From assembly GCA_035506175.1 (NCBI GenBank), contig DATJPZ010000078.1, positions 12,283 through 76,282 of the forward strand: 64,000 nt of DNA, given 5' to 3'. Positions 185 through 47,155 of this stretch are shown piece by piece. Origin of the DNA: Thermoanaerobaculia bacterium (GTDB taxonomy: Bacteria > Acidobacteriota > Thermoanaerobaculia > UBA5066 > Gp7-AA6). A program made the position numbers and the translations under genes. A model generated the notes under the pieces. The model ran no database searches. It was not told where the DNA came from and worked only from the letters and a program-made list of their open reading frames with translations. Numbering within the stretch: the stretch's first letter is position 1; each line of letters opens with the position of its first letter.

Positions 185-270
185 GCGAGCCTCCTCGAGA
201 AAGCGGCATTATTTCGCGGACCCGAGCGAAGCGGGCCTGCTAATCTACCGGCCCAGGTCACGGGAGAACG

Positions 271-3847: not shown

Positions 3848-3959
3848 GGCGTCACGCCCGCGAAGCCGTTGAGCCTCCTATCCTTCGTCGAGGCCTTCCG
3901 GTGGCCCCGTCCTTGCGAAGAAGTCGGGTCATCGGGAGCCCTGTCTCGATCAGGAGGCC

Positions 3960-5822
3960 ATGATGATCCGGACCATGCGACGCACCGTCCTCTTCGGGTT
4001 CGCGGCCCTGGCCGCCGCCTTCGCGGCGACCGCGGCGACGATCCCGAGCCGAAGCCCCTACCACCCCGCGGCCGCGCCCTCGACCGCGGCGCGCCTCGCG
4101 GCTCCCGGCCAGGAGGGCCTCGACTTCGACGCCACCCTCCTTCCGGCGCTTCGCGACCACGCGACGCGCGTCCTCGAAATGGACGGATTCCCCGTCGCGC
4201 CGGGCGCGACCGGAAAGGTCCGCCTCCATCGGTTCGAAATCGCGACCCCGGGCGCTCAGATGACGATCGAGGGACCCGACGGCGTGACCTCCCGTCCTCT
4301 GCCGGAGATCTCGCATTTCGCCGGCGTCGTCGAAGGCGAGCCCGACTCCTCGGTCTACCTCGCGGCCACGAAGGACGGCGTGGTCGCCTGGGTCCACTCC
4401 CGGCTCGGCCACGCTTACGTTGGTCCGGACGAGTCCGGCCGGTCCTTCGTCGTCCGCGACGGGGACTCCCCGCTGAACGCGGCCGCGAGCACGCAGCCGT
4501 GGGTCTGCCAGGCCGAGAACCTGCCCGCGGCGTTGTCCACGCCGGCGCCGTCGAGCATTCCGGCCCCGCAGCTGCCCGACGTCACGTTCAAGCAGGCGTC
4601 CGTCCGTGTCGAGACCGACTACCAGCTCTACCAGCACTTCGGCGGCGACGCCGACGCGATGTCGACCTACGTGATGACTCTCTTCGGCGCGGTCAACGTG
4701 ATCTACACGCGCGATCTCTCCCTCTATCTCGCCGTCTCGGAGATCCACGTCTGGAGCACGCCGGATCCGTACACGGGCGGTGACACGCTCACGCAGCTCT
4801 ACCAGCTCGGCACCTGGTGGCACGCCAACAAGCCGATCGCCTCGAACCCTCGGACTTACGTCCACTACCTCAGCGGTCACCCGGTCGCGGGCGGCATCGC
4901 GTGGGTCGACGTGCTCTGCTCCGGCGACTTCCAGGCCACCGCCACGCAGTGGGGCGGCGGCTACGGCCTGACTCAGGTCTTCGGCACATATCCGCTCCAG
5001 CTCTGGGACCAGGACGCCTCCGCACACGAGATGGGACACAACGTCGGCTCCGTGCACACGCACTGCTACGCGCCGCCGATCGACCACTGCTACAGCGGAG
5101 AGCAGGGCTGCTACTCCGGCCCGGTCGAGAACCCGGGTCTCGGCAACGGCACGATCATGAGCTACTGCCATCTCCTCGGCTGGCAGTACATGTCGCTCGT
5201 CTTTCACCCCCGCTGCATCTCCGAGCAGATGATGCCCGGCATCAACGGCGCTTCGTGCCTGACCACGCCCGGCATCTTCGCGGACGTCCTGCCCTCGGAC
5301 CCGTTCCTCTCCTACATCGACACCGTCTACAACGACGGCATCACGGGCGGCTGCGGCACCGATCCCCTCATCTACTGCCCGACCTCTCCCGTCACGCGGG
5401 CCCAGATGGCCGTGTTTCTCCTGAAGGCGATTCACGGCTCGTCCTACGCGCCGCCGGCCTGCGCCGGACTCTTCACCGACGTGCCGTGCTCGAACGGGTT
5501 CGCCCCGTGGATCGAGGAGCTCGCCGCGGAGGGCGTCACGGCCGGGTGCGGCACCGGCACCTACTGCCCGAACGACCCCGTGACGCGCCAGCAGATGGCG
5601 GCCTTCCTCCTGAAGGCCGAGCACGGCTCGTCCTACACGCCGCCGGCCTGCGCGGCCAACCCCTTCGCGGACGTCGCGTGCCCCGGTACTTTCACGAACT
5701 GGATCCAGCAGCTCGTCGCCGAGGCCGTCACGGGCGGCTGCGGCGGCGGCGACTACTGCCCCACGAGCCCGGTCACGCGGGGCCAGATGGCCGTGTTTCT
5801 CGTCAAGACGTTCGGGCTGTAA
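3960..5822 (+). CDS. Secreted metzincin-type zinc metalloprotease (reprolysin-like) with three C-terminal Cys-rich SLH-like repeats
   Basis: ORF track, 620 aa. aggagg RBS directly upstream. Signal peptide MMIRTMRRTVLFGFAALAAAFAATAA. HEMGHNVGSVH (HExxHxxGxxH) followed by GTIMSYC (Met-turn-like). The C-terminal triple repeat is homologous to that of 271..3039. Confidence 0.85.
   Translation: MMIRTMRRTVLFGFAALAAAFAATAATIPSRSPYHPAAAPSTAARLAAPGQEGLDFDATLLPALRDHATRVLEMDGFPVAPGATGKVRLHRFEIATPGAQMTIEGPDGVTSRPLPEISHFAGVVEGEPDSSVYLAATKDGVVAWVHSRLGHAYVGPDESGRSFVVRDGDSPLNAAASTQPWVCQAENLPAALSTPAPSSIPAPQLPDVTFKQASVRVETDYQLYQHFGGDADAMSTYVMTLFGAVNVIYTRDLSLYLAVSEIHVWSTPDPYTGGDTLTQLYQLGTWWHANKPIASNPRTYVHYLSGHPVAGGIAWVDVLCSGDFQATATQWGGGYGLTQVFGTYPLQLWDQDASAHEMGHNVGSVHTHCYAPPIDHCYSGEQGCYSGPVENPGLGNGTIMSYCHLLGWQYMSLVFHPRCISEQMMPGINGASCLTTPGIFADVLPSDPFLSYIDTVYNDGITGGCGTDPLIYCPTSPVTRAQMAVFLLKAIHGSSYAPPACAGLFTDVPCSNGFAPWIEELAAEGVTAGCGTGTYCPNDPVTRQQMAAFLLKAEHGSSYTPPACAANPFADVACPGTFTNWIQQLVAEAVTGGCGGGDYCPTSPVTRGQMAVFLVKTFGL
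5277..5819 (+). other. Protein-level module: three tandem Cys-rich SLH-like repeats (C-terminus of 3960..5822)
   Basis: FADVLPSDPFLSYIDTVYNDGITGGCGTDPLIYCPTSPVTRAQMAVFLLK / LFTDVPCSNGFAPWIEELAAEGVTAGCGTGTYCPNDPVTRQQMAAFLLK / PFADVACPGTFTNWIQQLVAEAVTGGCGGGDYCPTSPVTRGQMAVFLVK. Confidence 0.7.
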
Positions 5823-8101: not shown

Positions 8102-9562
8102 TTAGTGCAGATACCCGAGCGCCCGGAGCTCCTTGACCACGTCGCTCTGCTCGCCGAGGCCGTAGTGGCCCATGACCTGCTTCATCCACGTCTCGTAGGT
8201 CGGGGCGTGGTCCGGCCCCGGCGCGAGCCAGCCCGACGGGCCGCCGAGGTGTTTCATCAGCGTGTGGTAGAGCGTGCGGACGCGGTCCGGGTCATTCCCG
8301 GCGAGGTTTGATGTCTCGCCCGGGTCCTTCGCGAGATCGTAGAGCATCCGTTCCTGCGGCGTGACGAGGATGAACTTGCGGTCGCCCTCGACCACGCTCC
8401 CGATCCAGAACGTCCAGGCGCCCTCGCTGTAAGCGGGGCGTGGCGGTTCGGACGCGGCTTCGGGAAGGCCGAGCACCGCCGGCGCGAGGCTCCGGCCGCT
8501 CCAGGCCCGCGGGCGCTCGACGCCGACGAGATCGAGCAGTGTCGGCGCCACGTCGAGGTTCTGCACGAGTTGGGACTCGGCTCGCCCGGGCCTGCCGAGG
8601 CCAGGCGCGGCGATCACGAGCGGCGTGCGGACGACGCCGTCGAAGTAGGTCTGTCCGTGGCTGATCACGCCGTGCTCGTCGAACTCCTCGCCGTGATCGG
8701 CGTTGAAGACCACGATCGTCCTCTGCGCCAGCCCCGTCCGGTCGAGGTACGCGAAGAGCGGCTCGAGATCCTGGTCGGCCCAGTACAGCCCCTCGTCGTA
8801 CATCGCCATCGCGTTGGCGACGTCGTCCGGCGTCGGGTGGAGCGAGCCCGCGCGGACGCGCTCGATCGCGTCCAGCGTGAACTCGAAGGAGCTCGCGAAT
8901 TTTCCGAAGCGGTTCGTCCGCTCGTGGGCGTGGAGGAACGGGTAGTGCGTGTCGGTCGCGTAGAGGAACACGAAGAAACGGCCGCTCCGGTTCTTCTCGA
9001 TCCAGTCGAGGACGTGCGGCATCTTCTGGGACAGCGACTCCTGCGCGTGGCGGAAGAGGTCCCAGCCCTGGTCGAACCCGAAGGGCCCGGAGATCCAGCT
9101 CTGCACGAAGGCGGCGGTCTTGTAGCCGGCGCCGCGCAGCGCCTCCGAGACGAGTTCGTCCTGCGGCGAGGGTCCCGGCGCGATGCCGAGGATCTTCGAG
9201 GCGTCCTTCTCGTCGCGCTGCTCGTGGACGGCGAGCTCGGCCACGTAGCGCGAGGTCAACATCGACGCGTAAGACGGCAGGGTGTACGGCGCCTGCGCGA
9301 CGGAGCGCGGGAAGCGGACGCCGCGCGCGGCCAGCGCATCGAGGTGAGGCGTCGTCTTTCGCGCGTAGCCGTCGAAGGAGCAGTGGTCGGCGCGCACGGA
9401 GTCGAACGAGATCCAGATCACGTTCATGCCGCGACAGGCGTCGGCGGGATCCCTGCGGCACGCGGCCGACAGGAGACCCGCGAGCCCGAGGGCGGCGGCC
9501 GCGGCCGCGCGGGCGAGGCGGCGCGCGGCGGGAGCAGCTGCGGTTTTCGGTCTCGCGGGCAT
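8102..9562 (-). CDS. Sulfatase-fold (alkaline-phosphatase superfamily) lipoprotein with Thr at the nucleophile position
   Basis: Last 486 codons of the 8102..13435 ORF, starting at ATG 9562. MPARPKTAAAPAARRLARAAAAAALGLAGLLSAAC is lipobox-like. NVIWISFDSVRADH is the metal site. QAPYTLPSYASMLTSRY stands where sulfatases have C/S-x-P-x-R. ADHGEEFDEHG lies near the C-terminal half. Confidence 0.85.
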   Translation of the reverse strand: MPARPKTAAAPAARRLARAAAAAALGLAGLLSAACRRDPADACRGMNVIWISFDSVRADHCSFDGYARKTTPHLDALAARGVRFPRSVAQAPYTLPSYASMLTSRYVAELAVHEQRDEKDASKILGIAPGPSPQDELVSEALRGAGYKTAAFVQSWISGPFGFDQGWDLFRHAQESLSQKMPHVLDWIEKNRSGRFFVFLYATDTHYPFLHAHERTNRFGKFASSFEFTLDAIERVRAGSLHPTPDDVANAMAMYDEGLYWADQDLEPLFAYLDRTGLAQRTIVVFNADHGEEFDEHGVISHGQTYFDGVVRTPLVIAAPGLGRPGRAESQLVQNLDVAPTLLDLVGVERPRAWSGRSLAPAVLGLPEAASEPPRPAYSEGAWTFWIGSVVEGDRKFILVTPQERMLYDLAKDPGETSNLAGNDPDRVRTLYHTLMKHLGGPSGWLAPGPDHAPTYETWMKQVMGHYGLGEQSDVVKELRALGYLH

Positions 9563-9637
9563 CGCGTCCGAAGCATACCCGCGGGCCGCGGCGGCGCGGG
9601 TTGTCCCCCGGCCGCCCCTCTGAGAGACTGGCCGGCG

Positions 9638-12600
9638 ATGGAGCGCGCGGTTTTCGTCACCGGCTACTACGGTTTCGGCAACACCGGCGACGAGGCGATC
9701 CTCTCCGCGCTCGCCGCGGGCCTGCGCGCTCGCGACGCCTCGATCCGCATCCTCGCGACCTCGGGAGATCCGGGCCTGACTCGCCAGAAGCACGGGGTCG
9801 AAGCGGTCCCCTGGCGCGACCCGCTGTCGCTCGCGGAGGCGGTCAAGCGCGTCGACCTCGTCGTCATCGGCGGCGGCGGTCTCTTCCAGGACTACGGCGG
9901 CCTCGAGCCCGGGACGCTGCTGACCCCGAAGCACGGCGGCGTCACGTTCTACGCCGGGCCGGCCGTGCTCGCCGCCGCCGCCCGCAAGCCCGTCGCTCTC
10001 CATGCCCTCGGGCTCGGCCCGCTCGCCTCGCCGGAGGCGCGCCGCATCGTGCGCGCCGTCGCGGCCGACGCGGTTCGCGTCTCGCTGCGCGACGCCGGCT
10101 CGCGCGCGCTCCTCCGGGAGATCGGGGCCCCCGCCGAGAACGCCGCCGTCACGGCCGATCCCGCGTTCCTGCTCTCCTCCGGGCACGTCCGGCCCGAGGA
10201 CGTCCTGATCGGCATGGGCCTGGAGCCGCGGTCGCCGATCGTGGGCGTCGCGTTGCGGCCGTGGGCGCGCGGCGCGGACCCGGCGCGGTGGGAGGCCGCG
10301 GTCGCCGCGGCCCTCGACCGGATCGTCGAGCGCACCGGCGGCACCCTGCTCTTCGTTCCCTTCGAGCGCAGTCCGTGGTCCGACGACGACGACTTCGCCG
10401 TGGCCACCCGCGTGCGCCGCCGCCTCGCGCACGGCGACCGCGCCGCGATCCTCTCGGGGCTCCTCGCGCCGCAGGACACGGCGTCGCTTCTCGGCGGCTG
10501 CGACCTGGTTCTCGCGATGCGCTTCCACGCCGCCGTCTTCGCGCTCGCCGCGGCGGTACCGCCCGTGGCCCTCGCGTACGACCCCAAGGTGGACGCCCTT
10601 CTGGCCGGCACCGGTTTCGCCGATCTCGTCCTGCCGCTCTCCGGTCTCGATGCCGGCGACCTCGCGGCGCGGCTCGAGCGGGCTTACGCCGACCGCGAGC
10701 GGCTCTCGAAGAAAATCGCGGGCGCCGCCGCCGAGCAGCGCCGTCTTGCCGCCGGGGATCTCGACGCGCTCGCGGCGCTCGCCGCCGACCCGCCGGAGGC
10801 GCCGCCGGTTTCGCCCGAGATGCTGGCGCTTCTCGACGAAGGGCTTGCCGCGAACCTCCAGCGCACGCACGAGCTGTCGGCCGAAGTCGACATGCTCCGC
10901 GCGGACAAGATCGCGCAGGATCTGCGCGTCGGCGACCTCGAGGCGCGGTTGGCAGCGGCCGAAGGCGCCGAGGCTCCCCTGCGCGCGAGCCACGATGCCC
11001 TGCTGACCCGCTTCGAGGAAGCGGTCCAGGCGCACCGCCGCGAAATCGAGCTCCTCGAAGGTCAGCGCGTCGAAGCCCGCGAGGAGCTCTATCGCATCCA
11101 GACGTCGCGGCTGTGGCGCACCGTGAACCTCTACTGGCGGGCGCGGCGCGCGGCCGCGCGGCTGACCCGGCCGGCGAGGCGCCGCATCCAGGGCGTTCTC
11201 GGATCGCCGCCGGCCGACTGGGTCGGACCGGACACGGCGCGTGCCGAAGCCGCGGCGGCGCGGCGGCCGGAGGCCGACAACCGCTGCGAGATCGTTTTGC
11301 TCCCCTTCTCCGCCGGGACGGCCGAGGAGGCCCGGCGGCTGGCGGCCGCGGGTCATCGCGTGTTCGCGGTCGACCCGAGCCTGCGGGCGAGCGGCCCGCC
11401 CTACGCGGCGCTCGAGGGCCCCCCGCGGCTGTTCACCGTGACTCTCCGCGCGCCCGATCCGGCGTCGGCCGAGACGTTCGACGCCCTCGACCGCCTGCGC
11501 CGGGAGCTCTCCCTGTGCGCGACGCTCGCCGTCGCCGACGATCCGGCGTGGAGGCCCGTCGCGGCGCGCCTGGCCACCGAGCGCGGGTGGGCCCTTACCG
11601 AGACGCTCGGCGACGAGGCCGCGATCGCCCGCGCGTTCCCGAAGCTTTCGGTCGTCGTCGTCACGTGGAACGGCCTCGACTTCAACCGGCTCTGCCTCGA
11701 CAGCCTCTCGGCGCGTACCGAGTGGCCGAACCTCGAGATCGTGGTCGTCGACAACGCCTCGACCGACGGTACACGGGAGCTCCTCCAGGAGTGCATCCGG
11801 AAGGATCCCCGGATCCGGGCGATCCTCCTGCCCGAGAACCGCGGCTTCGCGGCCGCCTGCAACGAGGGCCTGGCCGCCTCGACGGGCGACTTTCTCGTGA
11901 TCTTGAACAACGACACGGTGGTCACGCGCGGCTGGGCCTCGGCGCTGTGCCGGCACCTCGCGGCCGACCCGAAGCTCGGCCTCGTGGGACCCGTCACCAA
12001 CGCCATCGCCAACGCGGCGAAGGTCGAGGCCGGCTACGCGTCGGTCGACGCCCTCGGCGCGTGGGCCGCGGAATGGGCGCGTGCCCACGACCGCGAGGCC
12101 TTCGACATCCCGGTGCTCGCCCTCTTCTGCACCGCGCTGCCCCGCCGCGTCTGGGAGGAGATCGGGCCGCTCGACGAACGCTTCGGGATCGGCCTCTTCG
12201 AGGACGACGACTACAGCCGGCGCGTGCGCGCGAAAGGCTACGCCGTTCGCTGCGCGCGGGATGCCTTCGTCCATCACTGGCAGATGGCCTCGTTCCGGAA
12301 GCTGTCGCGCGAGGCCTACTTCGCGCTCTACGCCGAGAACAAGCGCCGCTTCGAAGAGAAGTGGAGCGCCGCGCCGGCGGCGACCGCCGCGCGGCCGAGC
12401 GCGGCTCCCCCGGCGCGCCGCTTCGCGACGCTCGACGAGCACCGCGCCCAGCTCTCGCACGTGCGCGAGCGCGCCGCCGGCAGCAAGGGGGTGGTCGTCT
12501 TCCTGCCGTCGGTCGGCTGGGGGATCCACCTCTTCCAGCGTCCGCACCACCTGGCCCGCGTCTTCGCGCGCCTGGGCCATGTCGCCATCTTCGACAGCAG

Positions 12601-13510
12601 CAACGCCGCCGACCGCGTCGACGGGTTTCGCGAGATCGAACCGAACCTCTTTCTCTTCAGCGGCTCTCCGGAGCTGCTGCACGAGATCCCGTCGCCGCTC
12701 CTGTGGACCTTCCCCTACAACTTCCACCTCGCCGACGGGTACCCGAAGCCGTCGCGGACCGTCTACGACTGGATCGACGACCTGTCCGTTTTTCCCCAGG
12801 AGCGCGCTCTCCTCGAGCGCAACCACGCGCGGGCCCTCGTCGAGGCGACGCTCGTCGCGAGCGTGGCGCGCCGCCTTCACGAGCAGGCCCGCGCCGTCCG
12901 CAAGGACGCGCTGTACCTGCCCAACGGCGTCGAATACGAACGCTTCGCCGCGCCCGCCGCGCCGCCGCGCGACGAGAAGCTGCTGTCGTTCCTGACGCCG
13001 GGTGCGCCGGTCGCCGGGTACTACGGGGCGCTCGCCGAGTGGTTCGATTACCCGCTCGTGGACGCCGTCGCCGCCGCCAAACCCGACTGGCGCTTCGTCC
13101 TCATCGGCCCGCAGTACGACAAGAGCCTGCCGGGTCAGCCGATGCTCGAACGGAAGAACGTCCTCTGGCTCGGCCCGCGCGACTACGTCACGCTGCCCGG
13201 GTACCTCGCGCTCTTCGACGTCGCGACCATTCCGTTCCGCATCAACGCGATCACGCAGGCGACCTCGCCCTTGAAGCTTTACGAGTACTTCGCCGGCGCG
13301 CGGCCGGTCGTCACGACGCCGATGTCCGAGTGCCAGGCGCACCCCGAGGTCCGGATCGCCGCGACGGCCGGCGAGTTCGCAGCGGCCCTCGACGAGGCGC
13401 GGGCGCAGGGCCGCGATCCGGACTTCCGCGCGCACCTGCGCTCGGTTGCGCGGGAAAACTCGTGGTCGGCGCGGGTGATGACGGTGCTGCGCGCCCTCGA
13501 CGGCCGCTAG
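9638..13510 (+). CDS. 1290-aa fusion enzyme: CsaB-like polysaccharide pyruvyltransferase + coiled coil + family-2 glycosyltransferase + family-1 (TuaH-like) glycosyltransferase
   Basis: In-frame ATG at 9638 inside ORF 8570..13510. MERAVFVTGYYGFGNTGDEAILSAL...VVIGGGGLFQDYGG is pyruvyltransferase-like (about 9638..10750). Heptad-rich segment about 10760..11130. LSVVVVTWNGLDF...VVVDNASTDGT...ILLPENRGFAAACNEG...LFEDDDYSRR is GT2-like (about 11640..12300). YYGALAEWFDYPL...ATSPLKLYEYFAGARPVVTTP is GT1-like (about 12480..13500). Confidence 0.85.
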   Translation: MERAVFVTGYYGFGNTGDEAILSALAAGLRARDASIRILATSGDPGLTRQKHGVEAVPWRDPLSLAEAVKRVDLVVIGGGGLFQDYGGLEPGTLLTPKHGGVTFYAGPAVLAAAARKPVALHALGLGPLASPEARRIVRAVAADAVRVSLRDAGSRALLREIGAPAENAAVTADPAFLLSSGHVRPEDVLIGMGLEPRSPIVGVALRPWARGADPARWEAAVAAALDRIVERTGGTLLFVPFERSPWSDDDDFAVATRVRRRLAHGDRAAILSGLLAPQDTASLLGGCDLVLAMRFHAAVFALAAAVPPVALAYDPKVDALLAGTGFADLVLPLSGLDAGDLAARLERAYADRERLSKKIAGAAAEQRRLAAGDLDALAALAADPPEAPPVSPEMLALLDEGLAANLQRTHELSAEVDMLRADKIAQDLRVGDLEARLAAAEGAEAPLRASHDALLTRFEEAVQAHRREIELLEGQRVEAREELYRIQTSRLWRTVNLYWRARRAAARLTRPARRRIQGVLGSPPADWVGPDTARAEAAAARRPEADNRCEIVLLPFSAGTAEEARRLAAAGHRVFAVDPSLRASGPPYAALEGPPRLFTVTLRAPDPASAETFDALDRLRRELSLCATLAVADDPAWRPVAARLATERGWALTETLGDEAAIARAFPKLSVVVVTWNGLDFNRLCLDSLSARTEWPNLEIVVVDNASTDGTRELLQECIRKDPRIRAILLPENRGFAAACNEGLAASTGDFLVILNNDTVVTRGWASALCRHLAADPKLGLVGPVTNAIANAAKVEAGYASVDALGAWAAEWARAHDREAFDIPVLALFCTALPRRVWEEIGPLDERFGIGLFEDDDYSRRVRAKGYAVRCARDAFVHHWQMASFRKLSREAYFALYAENKRRFEEKWSAAPAATAARPSAAPPARRFATLDEHRAQLSHVRERAAGSKGVVVFLPSVGWGIHLFQRPHHLARVFARLGHVAIFDSSNAADRVDGFREIEPNLFLFSGSPELLHEIPSPLLWTFPYNFHLADGYPKPSRTVYDWIDDLSVFPQERALLERNHARALVEATLVASVARRLHEQARAVRKDALYLPNGVEYERFAAPAAPPRDEKLLSFLTPGAPVAGYYGALAEWFDYPLVDAVAAAKPDWRFVLIGPQYDKSLPGQPMLERKNVLWLGPRDYVTLPGYLALFDVATIPFRINAITQATSPLKLYEYFAGARPVVTTPMSECQAHPEVRIAATAGEFAAALDEARAQGRDPDFRAHLRSVARENSWSARVMTVLRALDGR

Positions 13511-13516
13511 CGGGTC

Positions 13517-15136
13517 TCAGCGCGCCGGCGAAATCTCGACGAGCCGAATCGCCGGTGCGCCCGACCGGTCGCGAAAGACCGTTTCGCGCGCGGCCGCGGC
13601 CGGCGCCTGCGCCAGCGCGTCGCGGAAGGCGCGCACGGACGCCGACGGCGGCTGGTTGTCCCACTCGAGAAACGCGCCGCCCTCGCCGATTTCGTCGCCC
13701 CAGGTTCGGCCTCGCGCCGAGCGCTCGGCCGTCGCTCCCCAGAAGAGCTCCGTCCCGTGAATCCGGCCGCCCGAGACGACGTAGAACGGGTTCTGAAAGC
13801 CCCAGTCGAGGAGCTTCAATTTCGCCGGCGGAATTGACCGCTCTTCGAGCGCGCGCGCGGCGTCGAAGGAAGCGCTCGACCAGAATCCCCGCCCGCCGGT
13901 CTCTCGCAGGCCTCGGTCGATGCGCGCGTCCCACGAAAGCCACACGGCGGCGAGCGCGGCGCCGGCCCCGGCCGCCAGAGCGCGCGCGGCCGGGGATCGC
14001 GGCCACGCCTCGGCGGCGAGAATCGAGAGGGCCGCGAGGCCCGGAGGAAGGACCGCCGCCATGTGATGCTGCCCGACCGGCAGCCGGGAGAAAGCCAGGA
14101 TCCCGGAAAGGAGAAGCGCCGTCCACGCGAGCGCCCGGCGCACCGACACGAGGCGCGCGTCGCCGCCGCGCCCCGGGAGGAACGCCCCGGCGCACGCGGC
14201 CGCAAGAAGCGCTCCGCCGAGCGCGACCTCCCACGCGCGCGTGCCCGGCCCGCCCCAGATCGGGCGGAGCTGCCTCGAGGAGATCATCAGCTCGGCCAGC
14301 AGCGACAGGCGCGCGCGGGCCCCGACCGACGCCGCCGGGAGCCGGCCGAGCGTCTCCATCACCGTCAGCGTCCCGCCGTGCGAGGCCGCCTCGTAGACCA
14401 GCAGCGGCAGGGCGCCGAGGAGACCACCCGCGGCCGCGGCGGCAAGCTCTCGCGCCGCCGGCCGCGCGCGCCGGCCGTAGACGATCGCGGCGGCCAACGC
14501 CGCCGCCGCGAGGAGCCAGACGAAGTTCACCCGCGCCCAGACGCCGAGACCCGCGGCGACCCCCAGGAGAGACGCGGACCGCGGGGACCGCCGCCGAAGG
14601 AATCGGGCGAGGGCGAACGCGAGGAGGCCCATCGCGGCCATCCAGACCGACGTTCCGCCATGGTCGAAAACGGTCAGGTCGAGATACCCGGGCTGAATCG
14701 CCAGGGCAAGGCCGGTGACGAGAGCGGCCGCGGGGCTCGCTTCCTCTGCCAGGAGCCGAACGAATCCCGCGATCCCGAGCGCGCCGAGAAGCGCGCCGCT
14801 CGACCGGGCAACCGCGGCGCCCGTCCCGAGGGCGGCAAAGAGCGGCAACGCGACCCACGCCTTGAACGCTCCGACGTAAGGGAAAACCATGATCGGCCAG
14901 CGGCGCCCGCCGGCGGCGAGAAAAAAGGCCGGGTCGTGCGCAAACGGCGGGTCGCCGCGTCCATCCGCGAGAACGTAGACGGCCGACTCGACGTAGAGCG
15001 CCTCGTCCATCTGGTAGCCGATACCCGCCGAGATCCGGCGCGCGGCGAACAGGCCGTAGACCACGAGCGGCAGAACGACGACGGCGGCCCCGCGGGGGCC
15101 GCGCGCACGCGGTCCGGTCTTCCCGGACGCCTTCAC
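13517..15136 (-). CDS. Polytopic GT-C-type membrane glycosyltransferase-like protein (ArnT/PMT family-like) with C-terminal soluble domain
   Basis: In-frame GTG at 15136, 11 nt downstream of the stop of the preceding gene (15147). Many hydrophobic helices. GIGYQMDEALYVES in the first loop resembles the DE motif of PMT/ArnT-type enzymes. The ORF-track start at 15337 is rejected because it overlaps the upstream gene. Confidence 0.75.
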   Translation of the reverse strand: MKASGKTGPRARGPRGAAVVVLPLVVYGLFAARRISAGIGYQMDEALYVESAVYVLADGRGDPPFAHDPAFFLAAGGRRWPIMVFPYVGAFKAWVALPLFAALGTGAAVARSSGALLGALGIAGFVRLLAEEASPAAALVTGLALAIQPGYLDLTVFDHGGTSVWMAAMGLLAFALARFLRRRSPRSASLLGVAAGLGVWARVNFVWLLAAAALAAAIVYGRRARPAARELAAAAAGGLLGALPLLVYEAASHGGTLTVMETLGRLPAASVGARARLSLLAELMISSRQLRPIWGGPGTRAWEVALGGALLAAACAGAFLPGRGGDARLVSVRRALAWTALLLSGILAFSRLPVGQHHMAAVLPPGLAALSILAAEAWPRSPAARALAAGAGAALAAVWLSWDARIDRGLRETGGRGFWSSASFDAARALEERSIPPAKLKLLDWGFQNPFYVVSGGRIHGTELFWGATAERSARGRTWGDEIGEGGAFLEWDNQPPSASVRAFRDALAQAPAAAARETVFRDRSGAPAIRLVEISPAR

Positions 15137-15146
15137 GAGAGACAGT

Positions 15147-16619
15147 CTAGCGAACCGGCTGCGGCGCGGGCGCGGCGGAGCTCTCGCCAGGGGCGCTTTC
15201 GAGCCGCGCGATCCGCGCCGAAAGCGCGTCGAGACCCTCGTCGGCCGGGAAAACGAGGTCGCGGCCCTCGCCCTCCAGCTGCGCGAGCTCACGCCGCTGT
15301 CTCTGCCACTCGTTGACCAGCATCGCGGGCAGCTCATGGTAGAGCACGGCCTCCGGCTGCCCTCCGTCGTCCGCGACGACGAGATCCGGAAGAACTTCCT
15401 GCACCTCTTCGGCGATCAGGCCGTACTGCGTGCGATCGTCCGCCGGCGTCTTGTAGTGAAAGGTCACCGGGCGGAGGTTGAAGATCCCCCGGCTCGCCTC
15501 GCCCATGTCCGAGACGTCCTCCTTGAAGCGAGCCGACGAGGCGATCGTGCCGACGTGCGACGTGGAATCGACGTAAACGGGCACCGCTCCCGGCCCGCTC
15601 GGAACGACGCCGAAGACCCCCGCCAGAAAGAACTTCGTGTGGAGACCGGGGTCGCCGATCCTCATGACGCCCGACTCGCTCGCGGCGCCGACGCTTCCCA
15701 GGTAGACGTTGTTGTCGCCGGCCGTCAGGTTGAATCCGGCCTGGGCGCCGAGTGCCGTGTTGTTGGACCCCGTCGACGAAAGCAGCGCCTGGTACCCGAC
15801 GGCCGTGTTCCCGGAGCCGCCGACGTTGCCCGCGAGCGCCTGCGCGCCGACGGCGACGTTGTTCGACCCGGTCGAATTGGACGCCAGGGCGCCGGCGCCG
15901 AGGGCGCTGTTGTTGTTGCCCGTCGTGTTGTTCCGCAGGGCCGACACGCCGAGCGCGGTGTTGTCGGAACCCGCGGTGTTGTTCAACATCGCGTAAGACC
16001 CGATCGCGGTGTTGACGGTTCCGGAGGTGTTCTGCTGAAACGCGCCGTAGCCGATCCCCGTGTTGTCGACCCCCGTCATCGCCGCGTTCCCGGCGGACAC
16101 GCCGAGGAACGTGTCGCTGACGTCGACGGCCGACGGTCCGAAGTACCCGTTCGTGTCGATGATGAAGTCGGTCGCCGAAACCGCCGCGGCCACCGTGATC
16201 TGCCCGGACTGGCCGAGCGGCACGATCGCCGCATTCGCGACCGTCAGACCCGACACGAAGTTGAGCGTCGACACGCCGGGTTGCGGCTGACCGGTCGGAT
16301 ACAGGAGCACGTACCCGAGACCGGTCGCGTTGACGACAGTCACGTTCAACGACACGGCCTGGGCTCCCGCCGGGATGCCGCAGCGCCCGGTCATCGTGAA
16401 CGCGCGCGGCACGCCGGCGCCGAGCGACGGCGGTCCGTAACCGGGCGGCTGATTCGAATCGCGCGTGTCGGCCACACGGCACGGCGTGATCCCGATGAAA
16501 GGCATCGGCGAGGTGACGAGGGTGGGAGCCTCGGGCAACGCGTCCTCCGCGACGAGCGGCCCGGCGAACGCCGCGCACGCGATCACCACCACCAGGAGAA
16601 GGCGCGCTCGCGTCGTCAT
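15147..16619 (-). CDS. Secreted tail-fibre-like protein, third of three tandem paralogues: signal peptide, PCRxxDTR N-domain, Asn/Thr/Gly/Ala-rich YadA-head-like repeats, peptidase S74-like intramolecular chaperone, coiled coil
   Basis: ATG at 16619 inside ORF 15147..17951, with an ATGA overlap to the upstream paralogue. MTTRARLLLVVVIACAAFAGPLVA is the signal peptide. PMPFIGITPCRVADTRD...IDTNGYFG. Repeats NTAIGSYAM/NTALGVSAL/NSALGAGAL. SSARFKEDVSDMG...LRPVTFHYK...YGLIAEEVQEVLPDLVV. Confidence 0.88.
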   Translation of the reverse strand: MTTRARLLLVVVIACAAFAGPLVAEDALPEAPTLVTSPMPFIGITPCRVADTRDSNQPPGYGPPSLGAGVPRAFTMTGRCGIPAGAQAVSLNVTVVNATGLGYVLLYPTGQPQPGVSTLNFVSGLTVANAAIVPLGQSGQITVAAAVSATDFIIDTNGYFGPSAVDVSDTFLGVSAGNAAMTGVDNTGIGYGAFQQNTSGTVNTAIGSYAMLNNTAGSDNTALGVSALRNNTTGNNNSALGAGALASNSTGSNNVAVGAQALAGNVGGSGNTAVGYQALLSSTGSNNTALGAQAGFNLTAGDNNVYLGSVGAASESGVMRIGDPGLHTKFFLAGVFGVVPSGPGAVPVYVDSTSHVGTIASSARFKEDVSDMGEASRGIFNLRPVTFHYKTPADDRTQYGLIAEEVQEVLPDLVVADDGGQPEAVLYHELPAMLVNEWQRQRRELAQLEGEGRDLVFPADEGLDALSARIARLESAPGESSAAPAPQPVR

Positions 16620-18079
16620 GGGAGCCTCCCGTCGCGCGACTGCTCGAGCGCTCCGATCCGGCCTTCGAGCTCCCGAATCTGCGCTTCCCGCGTGTCGAGC
16701 GATCGTTCCCGACTCTCGAGCGATTCGCGTCGTTCGGCGAGCCGAGCCTGGTCGTCGGCCAGACGCCGTTTCTGCTTCTGGAGCTCGTTGAGCAACAGCG
16801 CCGGGATCTCGTCGTAGCGAACGGTCAGCGCCTCTCCCGACCCGTCGCACACGACGAGGTCCGGCAGGGCGCGCTCGACCTCCTCGGCGATCAATCCGTA
16901 GGAGGTCCGCCCGGGCTGGTCCTTGTAGTGAAAGGCGACCGGCCGCAGCCTTTGGAGCGGGCCGCTCGCATCGGCCATGTCGAAGATCGCCTCTTTGCTG
17001 CGCGCCGACGACGTCGCGACCCCGAGCTGCCCCGTGACGTCGATCTGGACGAGAAGCCCCCCGCCGAGGGTCACTCCCCGGACGCCGGCCACGAAGGTCT
17101 TCGTCTGAATGCCGCCGGCGCCGAGACGAATGACCCCGCTGTCGTCGGAGACGCCGTCGTTGGCCACGTACAGGGCCGAGCCGCCCGTCGTCAGCGAGGA
17201 ACCGGCGCCTTGCCCGAGGGCGGCGTTGTTGTTCGAGAAGCCGGAGGCTCCCTGGAGCGCGTTCTTTCCGACGGCGGTGCTGTTGGTCCCGGCCGAGGAC
17301 ACGAGGGCGCCGACGCCGATCGCCGTGTTCATTTCCCCCGACGCGTTCACCGCCAGCGCATCGACGCCGAAAGCTTCGCTGACCGCGCCGTCTTGAAGGA
17401 GGGCAAGGGTCTCGACGCCGACGGCGACGTTCGACTGGCCGGACGTCGCGTTCAGGAGGGCGTTCTCGCCGGCGGCCGTGTTGGAGTTGGCGGTCGTGTC
17501 GCTCGCGAGGGCGTGAAACCCCACTGCGGTGAGCGCGGCCGCGGTCGTCGACGCGTTGCCGGCGCCGGTCCCGAGAAAGACGTTGCCGGCGTCCCCCGCG
17601 CTGCCGCCGAAGTACCCGTTGGTGTCGATGAGGAAGTCGGTGCCCGAAACCGCCGCCGCTACCGTGATGCCGCCGCCGGCGCCGAGCGGCACGACGGCCG
17701 CGTTGGCGACCGTCTGGCCCTGAACGTAGTTGACCGTCGACACGCCGGGCTGAGAGCCGCCCTGCGGGTAGAGCAGCACGTACCCCAGTCCCTGCGGGCT
17801 GACGACCGTCACGTTCAGCGACACAGCCGCCGCCCCGGCAGGGATCCCGCACCGACCCGCGATCGTGAAGCTGCGCGGAACGCCGGCCGCCAGCGACGGC
17901 GGCCCGTAACCGGGAGGCCTCGTCGCATCGCGCGTGTCCACGATCCGGCACGGCGTGATCCCGAGGAACGGCATCGGGACGGTCACGAGGGCCGGCGCCG
18001 CCGGCAGCTCTTCGCCGGCCGCGGAAGCCGCGGCCACGCCCAATCCGAACGCCAGCACGGCCGGAAGGCGGTGGTTCAT
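16616..18079 (-). CDS. Secreted tail-fibre-like protein, second of three tandem paralogues (same architecture)
   Basis: ATG at 18079 inside ORF 16616..19819, with ATGA overlaps at both ends. MNHRLPAVLAFGLGVAAASAAG is the signal peptide. PMPFLGITPCRIVDTRD. SSARSKEAIFDMAD...LRPVAFHYK...YGLIAEEVERALPDLVV. C-terminal heptad-rich tail. Confidence 0.88.
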   Translation of the reverse strand: MNHRLPAVLAFGLGVAAASAAGEELPAAPALVTVPMPFLGITPCRIVDTRDATRPPGYGPPSLAAGVPRSFTIAGRCGIPAGAAAVSLNVTVVSPQGLGYVLLYPQGGSQPGVSTVNYVQGQTVANAAVVPLGAGGGITVAAAVSGTDFLIDTNGYFGGSAGDAGNVFLGTGAGNASTTAAALTAVGFHALASDTTANSNTAAGENALLNATSGQSNVAVGVETLALLQDGAVSEAFGVDALAVNASGEMNTAIGVGALVSSAGTNSTAVGKNALQGASGFSNNNAALGQGAGSSLTTGGSALYVANDGVSDDSGVIRLGAGGIQTKTFVAGVRGVTLGGGLLVQIDVTGQLGVATSSARSKEAIFDMADASGPLQRLRPVAFHYKDQPGRTSYGLIAEEVERALPDLVVCDGSGEALTVRYDEIPALLLNELQKQKRRLADDQARLAERRESLESRERSLDTREAQIRELEGRIGALEQSRDGRLP

Positions 18080-19539
18080 CGTCCCCCTCCTTCTTCGAGC
18101 GCCGAGAGCCTGGCCCGGAGGGCCTCGATCCGCCGGCGATCGTTCCGCTCCCGCGCCGCCGCGCGCTCGGTCCGCGCCTCGAGCGCCGAGGATTCCGCCT
18201 TCTGCGCTTCGATCTGCGCCTGCTGCTTCTGGATTTCCTGGAGGAGCAGAACCGGGAGCTCGTCGTAGCGGACCGACACCGGAGCTCCGTCCGCGCCGCG
18301 GACCACGAGATCGGGCAGCACTGCCTCGACCTCCTCGGCGATCAGGCCGTAGCGGAGCTGCCCCTCCGCCGGCGCGCGATATCGAAAGGTGACGGGCCGG
18401 AGCGACAGGACGGAATTCGAGGCCGCGTCGAGGTCGCGGACGTCCTCCTTGAATCGCCGGGAAGAAACCAGCGTTCCGAACTGGCCGGTCGGGTCGACGA
18501 ACACCGGCAGGGCGTCGGCGAGAAGCGTGGCGCCGTAGATGCCGGCGATCCACGTCTGCGAAACGCCGGACGCCTCTCCGATCCGGATCGTCGCCGATTC
18601 GGTCGCGGGAGAGGAGATGGCGCCGATGTACACGTTGTTCGAGCCCGTCGCGAGATCCTGGCCCGCCGCCCAGGGAAACGCCGCGTTGTTGTTGCCCGAC
18701 GTCAATCCCTCCAGCGCGCCCTGACCGATCGCGGTGTTGTAGGAACCGGCGGCGACGTTGGCGAGACTGAAATAACCGGCGCCGGTGTTGTTCGATCCGG
18801 TCCCGTTGGCTTGCAGCGTGACGCCGAGGGCCGTGTTGCCGCTGCCGGTCGTGTTGGCGGAGAGCGCCTGCCTCCCGGCCGCGGTGTTTTCCGAGCCCGT
18901 CGTGTTGCTCATGAGCGCTTCCCATCCGAGCGCGGTGTTGCTCGAGCCGGTCGTGTTGGACCGAAGGGCCTCGACGCCCACGCCGGTGTTGTCGTCCTCC
19001 ACCGTCGTCGCGTTTCCGGCGTCGAGGTAGGCGCTCAAATAGCTCGTCGGGGAGGCGCCGTAGTAGCCGTTGACGTCGATGAGGAAGTCGGTACCGGAAA
19101 CCGCCGCCGCCACCGTGACGCCGCCGCCCGTCCCCAGCGGGACGATCGCCGCGTTGGCGACCGTCAGCCCCTGCACGTAGTTCAGCGTCGACACGCCGGG
19201 CTGGGAGCCGCCCTGCGGATAGAGCAGCACGTACCCCAGCCCCTGCGGGCTCACCACCGTGACGTTGAGCGACACCGCCTGTGCTCCCGTCGGAATCCCG
19301 CATTGCCCCGCCAGCGTGAAGCTGCGGGGAACCCCGGCCGCCAGCGAGGGCGGCCCGTAGCCGGGAGGCCTCGTCGCGTCCCGCGTGTCCACGATCCGGC
19401 ACGGCGTGATCCCGATGAACGGCATCGGGGACGTCACCAGCGCCGGAGCCGTGGGAAGGGCTTCGTCCGCTCTCGCGCCGCCCATGGCGACCGAAAGACC
19501 GGCGAGGAACGCGAGGCCGAAGCGAACGAAACGCGCCAT
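18076..19539 (-). CDS. Secreted tail-fibre-like protein, first of three tandem paralogues (same architecture)
   Basis: ORF track, 487 aa. aaggggggg RBS upstream of ATG 19539. MARFVRFGLAFLAGLSVAMGGARA is the signal peptide. PMPFIGITPCRIVDTRD. SSRRFKEDVRDLD...LRPVTFRYR...YGLIAEEVEAVLPDLVV. C-terminal coiled coil. Confidence 0.9.
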   Translation of the reverse strand: MARFVRFGLAFLAGLSVAMGGARADEALPTAPALVTSPMPFIGITPCRIVDTRDATRPPGYGPPSLAAGVPRSFTLAGQCGIPTGAQAVSLNVTVVSPQGLGYVLLYPQGGSQPGVSTLNYVQGLTVANAAIVPLGTGGGVTVAAAVSGTDFLIDVNGYYGASPTSYLSAYLDAGNATTVEDDNTGVGVEALRSNTTGSSNTALGWEALMSNTTGSENTAAGRQALSANTTGSGNTALGVTLQANGTGSNNTGAGYFSLANVAAGSYNTAIGQGALEGLTSGNNNAAFPWAAGQDLATGSNNVYIGAISSPATESATIRIGEASGVSQTWIAGIYGATLLADALPVFVDPTGQFGTLVSSRRFKEDVRDLDAASNSVLSLRPVTFRYRAPAEGQLRYGLIAEEVEAVLPDLVVRGADGAPVSVRYDELPVLLLQEIQKQQAQIEAQKAESSALEARTERAAARERNDRRRIEALRARLSALEEGGGR

Positions 19540-19637
19540 GGTCTGTCCCCCCCTTTGTTCCAGGCCGAACCCGACGCCCGTACGACACGCGCAACACGGC
19601 CCCGCGGGGGATCACCGCCGCGGCGCCACCCCGGTGT

Positions 19638-21410
19638 CTACGGCAAGTCGCGGTGGCGGGGCAGGGCCGGAGCAGCCGCGTCCGACCGGACGAACCCGAA
19701 ACCGAAGCGCGATCCGGCGGAGCCCTCGAGCACGACTTCGAGCGGCGCGCCGGCGGCGGCCAGCGGACACCTCGCCCAGCCGCCGCCGGGAAGGGGGAAT
19801 CGCTCCGGCCGCTCGACACCGCCGGCCCGGACCGTCACTTCGAGGCCCGCCCGGTCCTCGAGGTCGAGTCCGAGCTCGACACCCGGTTGACTTTGCGGCA
19901 GCCGGCACCGGACCCGCGCGGCGGCGCTCCCGGAGTCGGGCGCGGCGACGGCCCGGTCCCCCGAAAACGCGGCGAACCGTCCCGCCTCGGCCTCGCACGC
20001 GACGAGCCCCTTGCCTCCAGCCACCGTGAGCGGCACCCGCAGGACCCGGGGCGGCGCCTCGTCCTTCCGTACGGCGAGGCGCCCGAGCGCCGGGGCCGCG
20101 CCCAGCAGACCCGCGGCCAGGACCGCGCCGAGCACGAGATACCGCCGCCGCGCGCCACGCTCTCCCGGCGCCGCGAGAGCCGCGGCAAAGAGGGAAAGCG
20201 CCAGCAGCGCGAGCGCGATGGCGGGCACCATGAGGCGCCCGAGCGGCGAGAACACGACCTGCACGAGCGTCCTGAGCAGGACGGCCGCCGCGACGACGAG
20301 AATCGCTCGATCGCGGCGGGCAAGCGCCCACGCCGTCGCGGCGAGGAAGAATCCGCTGACGAGCGCCATCTCGAGCCTCAAGAGCGGCGCGGCGGCCGAC
20401 GTCAGCGCGGCGGCGGCGGACGCGCGGAAGGCCGGCAGCGCTCCCGGCGCGCCGAGGCTCCAGAAAAGATTCTGCGCTTCGCTGTCGACCGCCATTCTCG
20501 CGGCGGAGGCCCCCGCGCGAAACGCGTGATAGCGCCAGCGGCGCCGGGCCTCCTCGGCCGCCAGACGCCACGCCGCGCGCCGCAGGGCGAGCGGATCCGT
20601 CGAAAGTCCCGGCTCGACCGCCACCGCGAAAAGCGTCGGATCGACCCAGCCGGCTGCCGCCGATCCCGGAGCCAGCGTCCCGAGCACGCTCAGGCCGCCG
20701 TGATCGGTCGTCAACGCGAAGCGGCCCGTCGCCGCACGGCGCTCGAGGGCGAGCGCCAGAAGCGGGATCGCGGCGGCCACGGCCGTCTCGAGCAGGCGCC
20801 GGGCGCGGCTCTCGCGGCGGCCCGGAAGGCCCGCCGCCGCCAATGCCGGCGGCAGCAGAACGACCAGCATTTCCTGGCGGATCGCCACCGCGGCGGCAAA
20901 GAGAACGCCGGCGAGAACGGGGTGACCCGGATCCGACGAATCGCGCAGCCGCCTGACTGCCAGGCACGCGAGAGCGACCGTCGGCGGCAGGACCCAGTTT
21001 TCCTGCGCGACGACCCCGGAAAAGAAGACCTGCCCTGGCCACAGCGCGAGCAGGGCGCCGGCAAAGAGGCGCGCGCGCAAGCCCAGGATCGGCCTCCAGA
21101 TCAGGAACGGCAACAGCGCCGTCAGCCCCGTGACGACGGCCGTCGCCTCGCGCGCCGCCGCGGCCACGCCGTGCGGAAAGAGCCGGAAGAGCGCCGACAG
21201 CAGCAGGGGCAAGCCCGCGTTGAACTGGACCCAGTGCCACCCCGGCACCGCGAGGCCCTCGTCGCGCAGGCGCAGGCCGAACACGACGAGGCCGCGAAAA
21301 TCGGACACCGGTTCGGTCGGGAAGGCCCCGACGAAACCGAGGCGAAGGCCGACGCCGGCGAGAACGAGGGCAGCCGCACCGATCGCCTCCCGCCCGGCAC
21401 GTGGAGTCAA
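19638..21410 (-). CDS. Polytopic GT-C-type membrane glycosyltransferase-like protein with C-terminal soluble domain
   Basis: ORF track, 590 aa. About 11-13 hydrophobic helices over the first ~400 aa, then a ~170-aa soluble tail. General resemblance to the family 39/83/87 membrane glycosyltransferases. The family assignment is tentative. Confidence 0.7.
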   Translation of the reverse strand: MTPRAGREAIGAAALVLAGVGLRLGFVGAFPTEPVSDFRGLVVFGLRLRDEGLAVPGWHWVQFNAGLPLLLSALFRLFPHGVAAAAREATAVVTGLTALLPFLIWRPILGLRARLFAGALLALWPGQVFFSGVVAQENWVLPPTVALACLAVRRLRDSSDPGHPVLAGVLFAAAVAIRQEMLVVLLPPALAAAGLPGRRESRARRLLETAVAAAIPLLALALERRAATGRFALTTDHGGLSVLGTLAPGSAAAGWVDPTLFAVAVEPGLSTDPLALRRAAWRLAAEEARRRWRYHAFRAGASAARMAVDSEAQNLFWSLGAPGALPAFRASAAAALTSAAAPLLRLEMALVSGFFLAATAWALARRDRAILVVAAAVLLRTLVQVVFSPLGRLMVPAIALALLALSLFAAALAAPGERGARRRYLVLGAVLAAGLLGAAPALGRLAVRKDEAPPRVLRVPLTVAGGKGLVACEAEAGRFAAFSGDRAVAAPDSGSAAARVRCRLPQSQPGVELGLDLEDRAGLEVTVRAGGVERPERFPLPGGGWARCPLAAAGAPLEVVLEGSAGSRFGFGFVRSDAAAPALPRHRDLP

Positions 21411-47083: not shown

Positions 47084-47089
47084 AACGGC

Positions 47090-47140
47090 GTAGGGGCGGG
47101 GCTTGCCCCGCCCGCGGGCGGCCGCCAGGGCCGCCCCTAC
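47090..47140. repeat. GC-rich palindromic intergenic element, family 2, copy 1 (gyrB-gyrA spacer)
   Basis: gtaggggcggggcttgccccgcccgcgggcggccgccagggccgcccctac. Outer arms gtaggggcgg / ccgcccctac plus two internal hairpins. Confidence 0.65.
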
Positions 47141-47155
47141 GGCGCACGAGAGACG

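Follow-up and report, generated by a model that had tools for sequence, protein, structure and literature searches.

Three MAT-like, S74-terminated fibre genes and a GT-C glycosyltransferase gene occupy a 6.1 kb indel beside a glycan locus of a Thermoanaerobaculia bacterium

The window analysed here is a stretch of 64,000 nucleotides (nt) from a Thermoanaerobaculia bacterium of the phylum Acidobacteriota (GenBank assembly GCA_035506175.1, contig DATJPZ010000078.1, positions 12,283 to 76,282 of the forward strand), with a composition of ~70% GC, and this study concerns a run of five genes within it. Gene A (19638..21410) has a TTG start and encodes a polytopic GT-C glycosyltransferase of 590 amino acids (aa; PMT_2 / 'GT39 family'). 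Three genes for fibre proteins follow, namely B1 (18076..19539, 487 aa), B2 (16616..18079, 487 aa) and B3 (15147..16619, 490 aa), and the run ends with gene C (13517..15136), which starts with GTG and encodes a 539-aa glycosyltransferase of GT-C fold. All five open reading frames, described as co-directional in a first-pass annotation of this DNA, were found on the minus strand at these positions, and the same genes were recovered by an independent gene caller and in two independent assemblies (ENA ERZ27256510 and Logan SRR8879131). The agreement between assemblies shows that the arrangement is real and excludes misassembly.

The three fibre genes are chained by start/stop overlaps, as had been noted before. 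At both the B1/B2 and the B2/B3 junction the start codon sits on the preceding stop codon in an ATGA overlap, and a GGAGG-like motif lies before each. The GTG start of C (15136) is placed 10 nt past the B3 stop codon, TAG. Between A and B1 there is a gap of 98 nt, which holds a GC-rich hairpin; a promoter and terminator scan of this 70% GC DNA gave no signal over shuffled expectation. Convergent with the five genes is a plus-strand gene (9638..13510) for a 1290-aa protein in which a CsaB-like polysaccharide pyruvyl transferase is fused to GT2 and GT1 domains, with Pfam matches to PS_pyruv_trans, Glycos_transf_2 and Glyco_trans_1_4. The genes adjoining the run had been described as glycan-synthesis genes, which holds downstream, where this fusion lies, but not upstream, where the neighbours encode a DUF5666 protein and an amidohydrolase.

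Comparison with relatives divides the run. The closest relative, locus L087 (GCA_035500755.1, Thermoanaerobaculia), has 87-91% nucleotide identity to the window. In blastn, L087 and a second relative, L088, are collinear with the window from 27139 to 19642 and then jump to 13523, from where collinearity continues to 9622. Window positions 13524..19641 are therefore a 6.1 kb indel, and this segment holds B1, B2, B3 and C. On one side it is bordered by the final sense codon of A, on the other by the ancestral TGA plus 6-nt spacer, which ends A in the relative and C in the window. The segment is absent from four relatives, two of these more distant, and gain in the window's lineage is therefore the parsimonious reading. 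Neither the junctions nor the segment showed a target-site duplication, flanking direct repeats, terminal inverted repeats, att-like repeats, an integrase or a transposase; the only junction feature is a weak 9-nt likeness between the two ends (TAGACACCG vs TGAGACCCG). In another relative, L089, a palindrome resembling repetitive extragenic palindromes (REP-like) is present in tandem with a period of ~117 nt (L089 11780-12400), exactly at the A/glycosyltransferase junction that holds the fibre insertion in the window, which identifies the junction as a variable site.

With 32.7 bits (E=1e-7), gene A exceeds the gathering score of 26.1 bits set for Pfam PMT_2, and inspection by eye gave one candidate, Asp D37, for the acidic motif of the first extracytoplasmic loop. 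Its family comprises 216 clusters. Orthologues of A with 81, 60 and 58% identity are convergent with, and directly beside, the pyruvyltransferase-glycosyltransferase gene and are accompanied by neither fibres nor C. This neighbour, a fusion of 1286 aa in the relatives with the same PS_pyruv_trans/GT2/GT1 composition, adjoins A in four relatives (L087-L090), each of them lacking B1-B3 and C. The order of the block is conserved and runs ATP synthase, LOG, amidohydrolase, DUF5666, A, pyruvyltransferase/GT2/GT1, sulfatase, two-component system. A hidden Markov model (HMM) of the A family gave zero matches in 86 independently retrieved fibre loci. Because the relatives keep A beside the pyruvyltransferase-glycosyltransferase gene, A is part of a conserved neighbouring glycan locus; it is the resident GT-C of a conserved Thermoanaerobaculia block and lies outside the fibre unit. 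Most likely it serves the envelope-glycan pathway of that block. Two SLH proteins are encoded in the window a few kb from the pyruvyltransferase fusion, one with TIG and SLH domains (244-3039) and one with a reprolysin-type metalloprotease and SLH domains (3873-5822). The presence of SLH genes near a CsaB-like pyruvyl transferase suggests that this acidobacterium anchors SLH proteins to a pyruvylated glycan, and gene A probably belongs to this SLH/pyruvylated-glycan pathway. Some relatives, L087 (11458-13305) and L088 (7084-8847), have a further A-type GT-C, with 54% identity to A, between the large glycosyltransferase gene and the sulfatase; at this place the window has only ~160 nt (9460-9622) and no such gene.

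B1 consists of a Sec-type signal peptide, an N-terminal domain (N-domain), a shaft, an S74 chaperone domain and a C-terminal coiled coil, and B2 and B3 are its paralogues. All three signal peptides have a positively charged n-region, a hydrophobic core and an AxA-like site. Peptidase_S74 (PF13884, cutoff 22) is matched by B1, B2 and B3 with 50.9, 34.0 and 49.5 bits, respectively (B1, E=2e-13), at residues ~357-414; the Pfam match defines a chaperone core at residues 359-412 of B1 (18304..18465, minus strand). A Ser359...Lys364 dyad (SSRRFK) is located at the predicted autocleavage site of B1, and S359, R362 and K364 are invariant among 35 homologues. The shaft is built of 17-residue NTAxG repeats, visible in the DNA as a 51-nt periodicity, and is rich in Ser/Thr and NxS/T. 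Matches to PHROG tail fibre and tailspike families fall on B1 residues ~120-460 only, that is, on the shaft and S74 domain, and profile matches in the PDB are the chaperone region of phage S16 gp37 (6F45) and the MYRF ICA domain. The Pfam, PHROG and signal-peptide evidence thus upholds the earlier description of three Sec-secreted, tail-fibre-like paralogues and adds that they terminate in S74. Identity among the paralogues differs by region, with 77-88% in the N-domain (28-165), 40-44% with indels in the shaft and 51-56% in the S74 region.

No Pfam match to a YadA-type beta-barrel anchor was obtained in B1-B3, whose C-terminus is S74 plus coiled coil. They are therefore not trimeric autotransporter adhesins (type Vc), a candidate that was rejected; one JGI homologue carries this name due to its repeats only. 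In the signal peptide of B3 the residues V-I-A-C would fit a lipobox. This match is probably coincidental, because B1 and B2 have no Cys at that place. The fibre family is large, with >6,400 scored candidates matched, and its genome matches are in Acidobacteriota, Verrucomicrobiota, Planctomycetota, Methylomirabilota and Proteobacteria. Giant relatives of 1,600-4,000 aa occur in tandem in uncultured bacteria from MFD metagenome-assembled genomes (L025, L032, L040 and L080); they have the shaft and S74 in common with B1-B3, not the N-domain.

The N-domain covers approximately residues 28-165 of B1 (19045..19458, minus strand; about 17585-17998 in B2 and 16125-16538 in B3, same strand) and carries the motifs PCRxxDTR...IDxNGY and two invariant Cys. 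No Pfam or NCBIfam model matches it. In an AlphaFold2 (AF2) model the B1 N-domain is an eight-strand beta-sandwich (pLDDT 89.6). The best PDB match of this model in Foldseek is the C-terminal tip of Bd2133 (8OK3/8OND; E 6e-5, TM 0.54/0.64), a domain of the mosaic adhesive trimer (MAT) fibres of Bdellovibrio bacteriovorus, followed by the TNF-like N-terminal lectin of BC2L-C and several carbohydrate-binding modules; structure matches in the viral library are phage tail fibre domains and C1q/collagen-headed proteins. When 1.84 billion representatives were searched with a profile of the domain, 31,231 clusters matched at E<=1e-3, which makes this unnamed domain family very large. Among bacterial fibre ORFs, 62 of 161 contain the domain, nearly all of them from Acidobacteriota, and further copies are in plasmid proteins of Streptomyces whose only annotation is hypothetical or PKD-containing.

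Outside fibres, the copy number of the N-domain follows a pattern. In the 149 best-scoring non-fibre proteins (P0299-P0447) the copies are contiguous and number three in 143 proteins, six in five and nine in one, and in 142 the end of the block coincides with the C-terminus. Ranking was by summed bit score, which favours multi-copy proteins, so the sample shows multiples of three among multi-copy proteins and not an absence of single-copy non-fibre proteins. The triplets are attached to unrelated secreted modules, including Vgb_lyase, PKD, RCC1 and CAP. Since a fibre chain has one copy and these other chains have three, the working unit would be a trimer, and we infer that the N-domain is a C1q/TNF-like trimeric module. 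The 3/6/9 blocks of the N-domain, mostly terminal on otherwise unrelated secreted enzymes, have the triplet pattern of pseudo-trimeric wall-binding modules such as the triplicated SLH and CWB2 units of cell-envelope anchoring. SLH and CWB2 have no sequence or fold relation to the N-domain, however, and a B1-B3 trimer would be made of three chains, not repeats. By analogy with these wall-binding modules, the N-domain may be the conserved proximal, anchoring end of the fibre, with the variable shaft and tip carrying specificity. The 3/6/9 rule therefore offers a testable hypothesis of an obligate trimer that is likely a glycan-binding or anchoring unit.

The three fibre genes are found elsewhere as a set. 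The closest orthologous array is in locus L001, on a 1.26 Mb contig, which contains orthologues of B1, B2 and B3 in 1:1 correspondence and in the same order, with 71/68/71% identity on the diagonal vs 52-58% off it. This array (497/494/491 aa) is in a wholly different neighbourhood and is accompanied by neither an A- nor a C-family gene. Judged from these sequences, B1-B2-B3 form an older unit that can be relocated. Such genes also stand in tandem, two to five per array, in L002, L003, L013, L022, L091 and L092, in neighbourhoods of housekeeping and not phage genes. L001-L003 have exactly three genes each, with unequal lengths in L002 (569/483/614). L001 also encodes a 600-aa protein (15673-17610, minus strand) 1.2 kb from its three-gene array, with N-domain and shaft and without S74, a counterpart of the 'non-S74' subgroup of MAT fibres.

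Gene C falls just under the PMT_2 gathering score (24.7 bits), and its assignment comes from structure. The AF2 model (pLDDT 92.3, pTM 0.92) has best PDB matches in Foldseek that are all GT-C, comprising ALG12, ArnT, STT3/PglB, ALG9, AftB, Pmt4 and DPY19 (E 6e-7 to 6e-4). Both polytopic proteins are thus GT-C glycosyltransferases, as first proposed, A by the PMT_2 threshold and C by its fold. The QMDEALY motif pointed out earlier in the first loop of C is likewise substantiated, since D44-E45 is invariant among 50 homologues and lies just past the first transmembrane segment, in the first extracytoplasmic loop. C shares the fold and this Asp-Glu with enzymes of the ArnT/PMT/ALG type, of which A passes PMT_2. 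Its family is tiny in comparison, with 58 clusters, all bearing Thermoanaerobaculia-type names, and is without a PDB relative by sequence, the C-family profile giving only spurious antibody matches among PDB sequences. Enzymes that act on proteins and enzymes that act on lipids or glycans are both among the fold matches of C, so that its fold does not discriminate between these kinds of acceptor. Mutual sequence similarity is absent between A and C, which are not paralogues, and neither has a PHROG match. Profile alignment of C with hhalign against the polytopic neighbours in L001 (593 aa) and L003 (542 aa) and against A was uninformative, even A vs C scoring <1% probability.

To relate C to the fibres, family HMMs built for A, B and C were applied to 51 C-family loci besides the window. 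Fibres are immediately beside C in L091, L092, L108, L137, L222 and L220/221, and three arrangements occur in all: divergent in L091 (four fibres), L092 (two) and L222 (106 nt apart, from a separate look-up), C followed by fibres in L108 and L137, and fibres followed by C in the window. Across 393 kb of C-locus flanks there was no fibre gene other than directly beside C. All four arrays in these flanks start within ~430 nt of C, and the chance of four randomly placed arrays falling within 500 nt is ~1.6e-4. The fibre-linked C genes spread over a close clade of the C tree, and none of 14 distant-clade C loci had a fibre. Among the 86 independently retrieved fibre loci mentioned above, the family HMM found no C gene either. 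Most C loci and most fibre arrays have no such partner, and the link between C and fibres is therefore recurrent, non-random and facultative. The polytopic neighbours of 35 N-domain fibre loci are mostly transporters, with one YfhO (L016), which we take to be a GT-C-type family, and three unclassified proteins, and these results give no general GT-C rule for fibre loci. A survey of GT-C genes beside fibres, as suggested by the first-pass annotation, consequently has a divided outcome: in relatives, A is never beside fibres, and C is recurrently but not obligately adjacent. A role of C in glycosylating the fibres is plausible. Within the composite reading proposed below, we put a functional link between C and the fibres, with either the fibre or its docking glycan as acceptor, at close to but not quite an even chance. 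The facultative pairing with one small GT-C family offers an entry point to glycosylation of the fibres or of their docking site.

The architecture had been thought to lack a described counterpart, which overlooks the MAT family of Bdellovibrio described by Caulton et al. 2024 (PMC10769870). According to that study, MAT fibres have a signal peptide, a conserved beta-rich N-domain of ~130-140 aa and a trimeric beta-helix; 13 of 21 members have an S74 domain with SDxxxK, the Ser/Lys spacing of which, shared with phage S74 domains, is that of B1; and members have been shown to be located on the cell surface and to bind glycans. The S74 members resemble B1-B3 in being chromosomal, non-phage and multi-paralogue with nearby loci, in an S74 domain with Ser-x4-Lys, and in a signal peptide directly followed by a beta-rich N-domain and a long repeat shaft akin to phage fibres, beta-helical in MAT and predicted to be so in B1-B3. 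The closest PDB match of the B1 N-domain is likewise a MAT domain. The two differ in length (~1000 aa in MAT vs ~490 aa), in the tight, translationally coupled arrays of three formed by B1-B3, and in host, a predatory Bdellovibrio vs an acidobacterium without a known predatory lifestyle. The passages of the MAT report that were examined mention no GT-C partner, whereas C stands beside some acidobacterial arrays. We class B1-B3 as an acidobacterial variant of MAT-like fibres, with an N-domain that may or may not be homologous to that of MAT. This extends MAT-like, S74-chaperoned fibres from Bdellovibrio to the soil-abundant Acidobacteriota (Thermoanaerobaculia, Bryobacterales and others), where they form conserved translationally coupled arrays. 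Phage fibres and tailspikes with an intramolecular chaperone (K1F endosialidase, T5 pb1, S16 gp37; PF13884) have the same S74 Ser/Lys and the shaft type of the tail-fibre PHROGs, but they begin with a virion-attachment N-terminus, where B1-B3 instead have a cellular N-domain behind a Sec signal peptide and are not in a phage context.

Together, these results lead us to consider it probable that the five genes are a composite and not a five-gene system, in which the resident GT-C of a pyruvylated-glycan locus adjoins an inserted unit of three MAT-like fibres and an accessory GT-C. In the model that we propose, the 6.1 kb segment with B1-B2-B3 and C would have entered the window's lineage by insertion precisely at the stop codon of A, and B1-B3 would be chromosomal, Sec-exported fibres of MAT-S74 design. 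The N-terminal beta-sandwich, one copy per chain, would form a C1q/TNF-like trimer that holds the fibre on the envelope, and the variable beta-helical shaft of 17-residue repeats would give binding specificity. The C-terminal S74 chaperone would drive trimerisation and then cut itself off at Ser359/Lys364. C would be a periplasm-facing, polyprenyl-phosphate-sugar-dependent transferase, a companion of fibre arrays in a minority of lineages, that probably glycosylates the exported fibres or installs an envelope glycan epitope beneath them. The tempting 'new five-gene system' is thereby removed, one of its glycosyltransferases being a mere neighbour at the insertion site.

Several points weigh against this proposal. 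Fibres are missing from 18 of the 21 C loci whose flanks reach >=1 kb in both directions, and C is missing, outside the C set, from 35 of 35 N-domain fibre loci, so each works without the other adjacent. The direction of the indel, gain vs loss, is a matter of parsimony over four relatives. Trimerisation, surface exposure and autoproteolysis of B1-B3 are predictions here, and the proposal does not explain how the fibres pass across the outer membrane. In addition, the MAT report gives no PDB homologue for the MAT N-domain, whereas the B1 N-domain resembles the Bd2133 tip, and the two N-domains may therefore have different folds (PMC10769870).

The first-pass annotation had read all five genes as a single module, its fibres possibly glycosylated on the periplasmic side; by this model, the two flanking GT-Cs would both act on them. 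The genes are indeed co-directional and tightly packed, both flanking proteins are GT-C, and the Ser/Thr- and NxS/T-rich shafts would suit such a role. Synteny largely refutes the idea: the four relatives that have A beside the pyruvyltransferase-glycosyltransferase gene, and neither B1-B3 nor C, show that the five genes are not one unit, the orthologous L001 array has no GT-C of either family next to it, and A is missing from all 86 fibre loci. With the unrelated sequences of A and C and the hairpin-containing gap between A and B1 also speaking against it, we regard a single module as very improbable. Descent from a phage fares even worse. In phage P22 the tailspike gene lies beside gtrABC, and by this precedent the cassette could be a prophage or tailocin tail-fibre remnant, with the GT-C as a serotype-conversion gene like phage gtr; the shaft and S74 do match tail fibre PHROGs, and relatives are encoded in 523 viral stretches. 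However, no phage structural, integrase or lysis genes were detected in the indel or its flanks, and the flanks of the window are housekeeping genes that are syntenic in relatives. B1-B3 have Sec signal peptides, 78 of 78 viral loci lack the N-domain (and also any match to the A- and C-family HMMs), and the relatives' arrays also lie among housekeeping genes, while C matches no PHROG and att-like repeats were not found. On gene context, and because viral contigs lack the N-domain, we reject a prophage or tailocin origin, in keeping with the first description of chromosomal fibres unaccompanied by phage genes, and a remnant of this kind is scarcely credible.

The alternatives that remain concern the relations among the inserted genes. 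C and the fibres might both be cargo of variable surface-gene islands, their adjacency meaningless and C modifying an unrelated envelope lipid or glycan. The many C loci without fibres, the lack of C at fibre loci outside the C-selected set, and the L001 array without C would all fit, as would an insertion site that is a variable junction with a REP-like array in L089 and the lipid/glycan-acceptor enzymes ArnT and ALG12 among the structural matches of C. Against this, the fibres found in C flanks are always the immediate neighbour, in three arrangements and at least four lineages, at the low chance value given above, and we hold the cargo explanation to be unlikely while still a serious contender. 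An improbable alternative is that B1, B2 and B3 assemble into one heterotrimeric fibre and not three homotrimers. Translational coupling through ATGA, the conserved order with 1:1 orthology, the near-equal lengths in the window and in L001, and the occurrence of exactly three genes in L001-L003 are compatible with it, and elsewhere it is three non-identical tandem N-domain copies that form the unit. Yet other arrays have two, four or five genes, or unequal lengths as in L002, the shafts are only 40-44% identical with indels, and the known S74-chaperoned fibres are homotrimers (PMC10769870). We also envisage, as a rather improbable possibility, an undescribed surface display system, in which the PCRxxDTR beta-sandwich would be the recognition unit. 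Its trimer, made of three tandem repeats at the end of thousands of secreted enzymes or of the three chains of a fibre, would dock on a specific envelope glycan, and the C-type GT-C accompanying some fibre arrays would install or tailor that glycan or glycosylate the fibre. SLH domains bound to a pyruvylated wall polymer would be a functional analogue of such docking, but of unrelated fold.

Outside this locus, GT-C genes next to the gene of the fibre that their product modifies include that of Pseudomonas aeruginosa TfpW beside pilA and that of phage GtrC beside tailspike genes. Like C, these are polytopic GT-C proteins with a periplasmic catalytic loop encoded beside a surface-fibre gene; the pairing of C, by comparison, is facultative. 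Finally, the window itself contains a REP-like GC-rich palindrome of ~53 nt (GTAGGGGCGG...CCGCCCCTAC) between two genes at 47089-47141.

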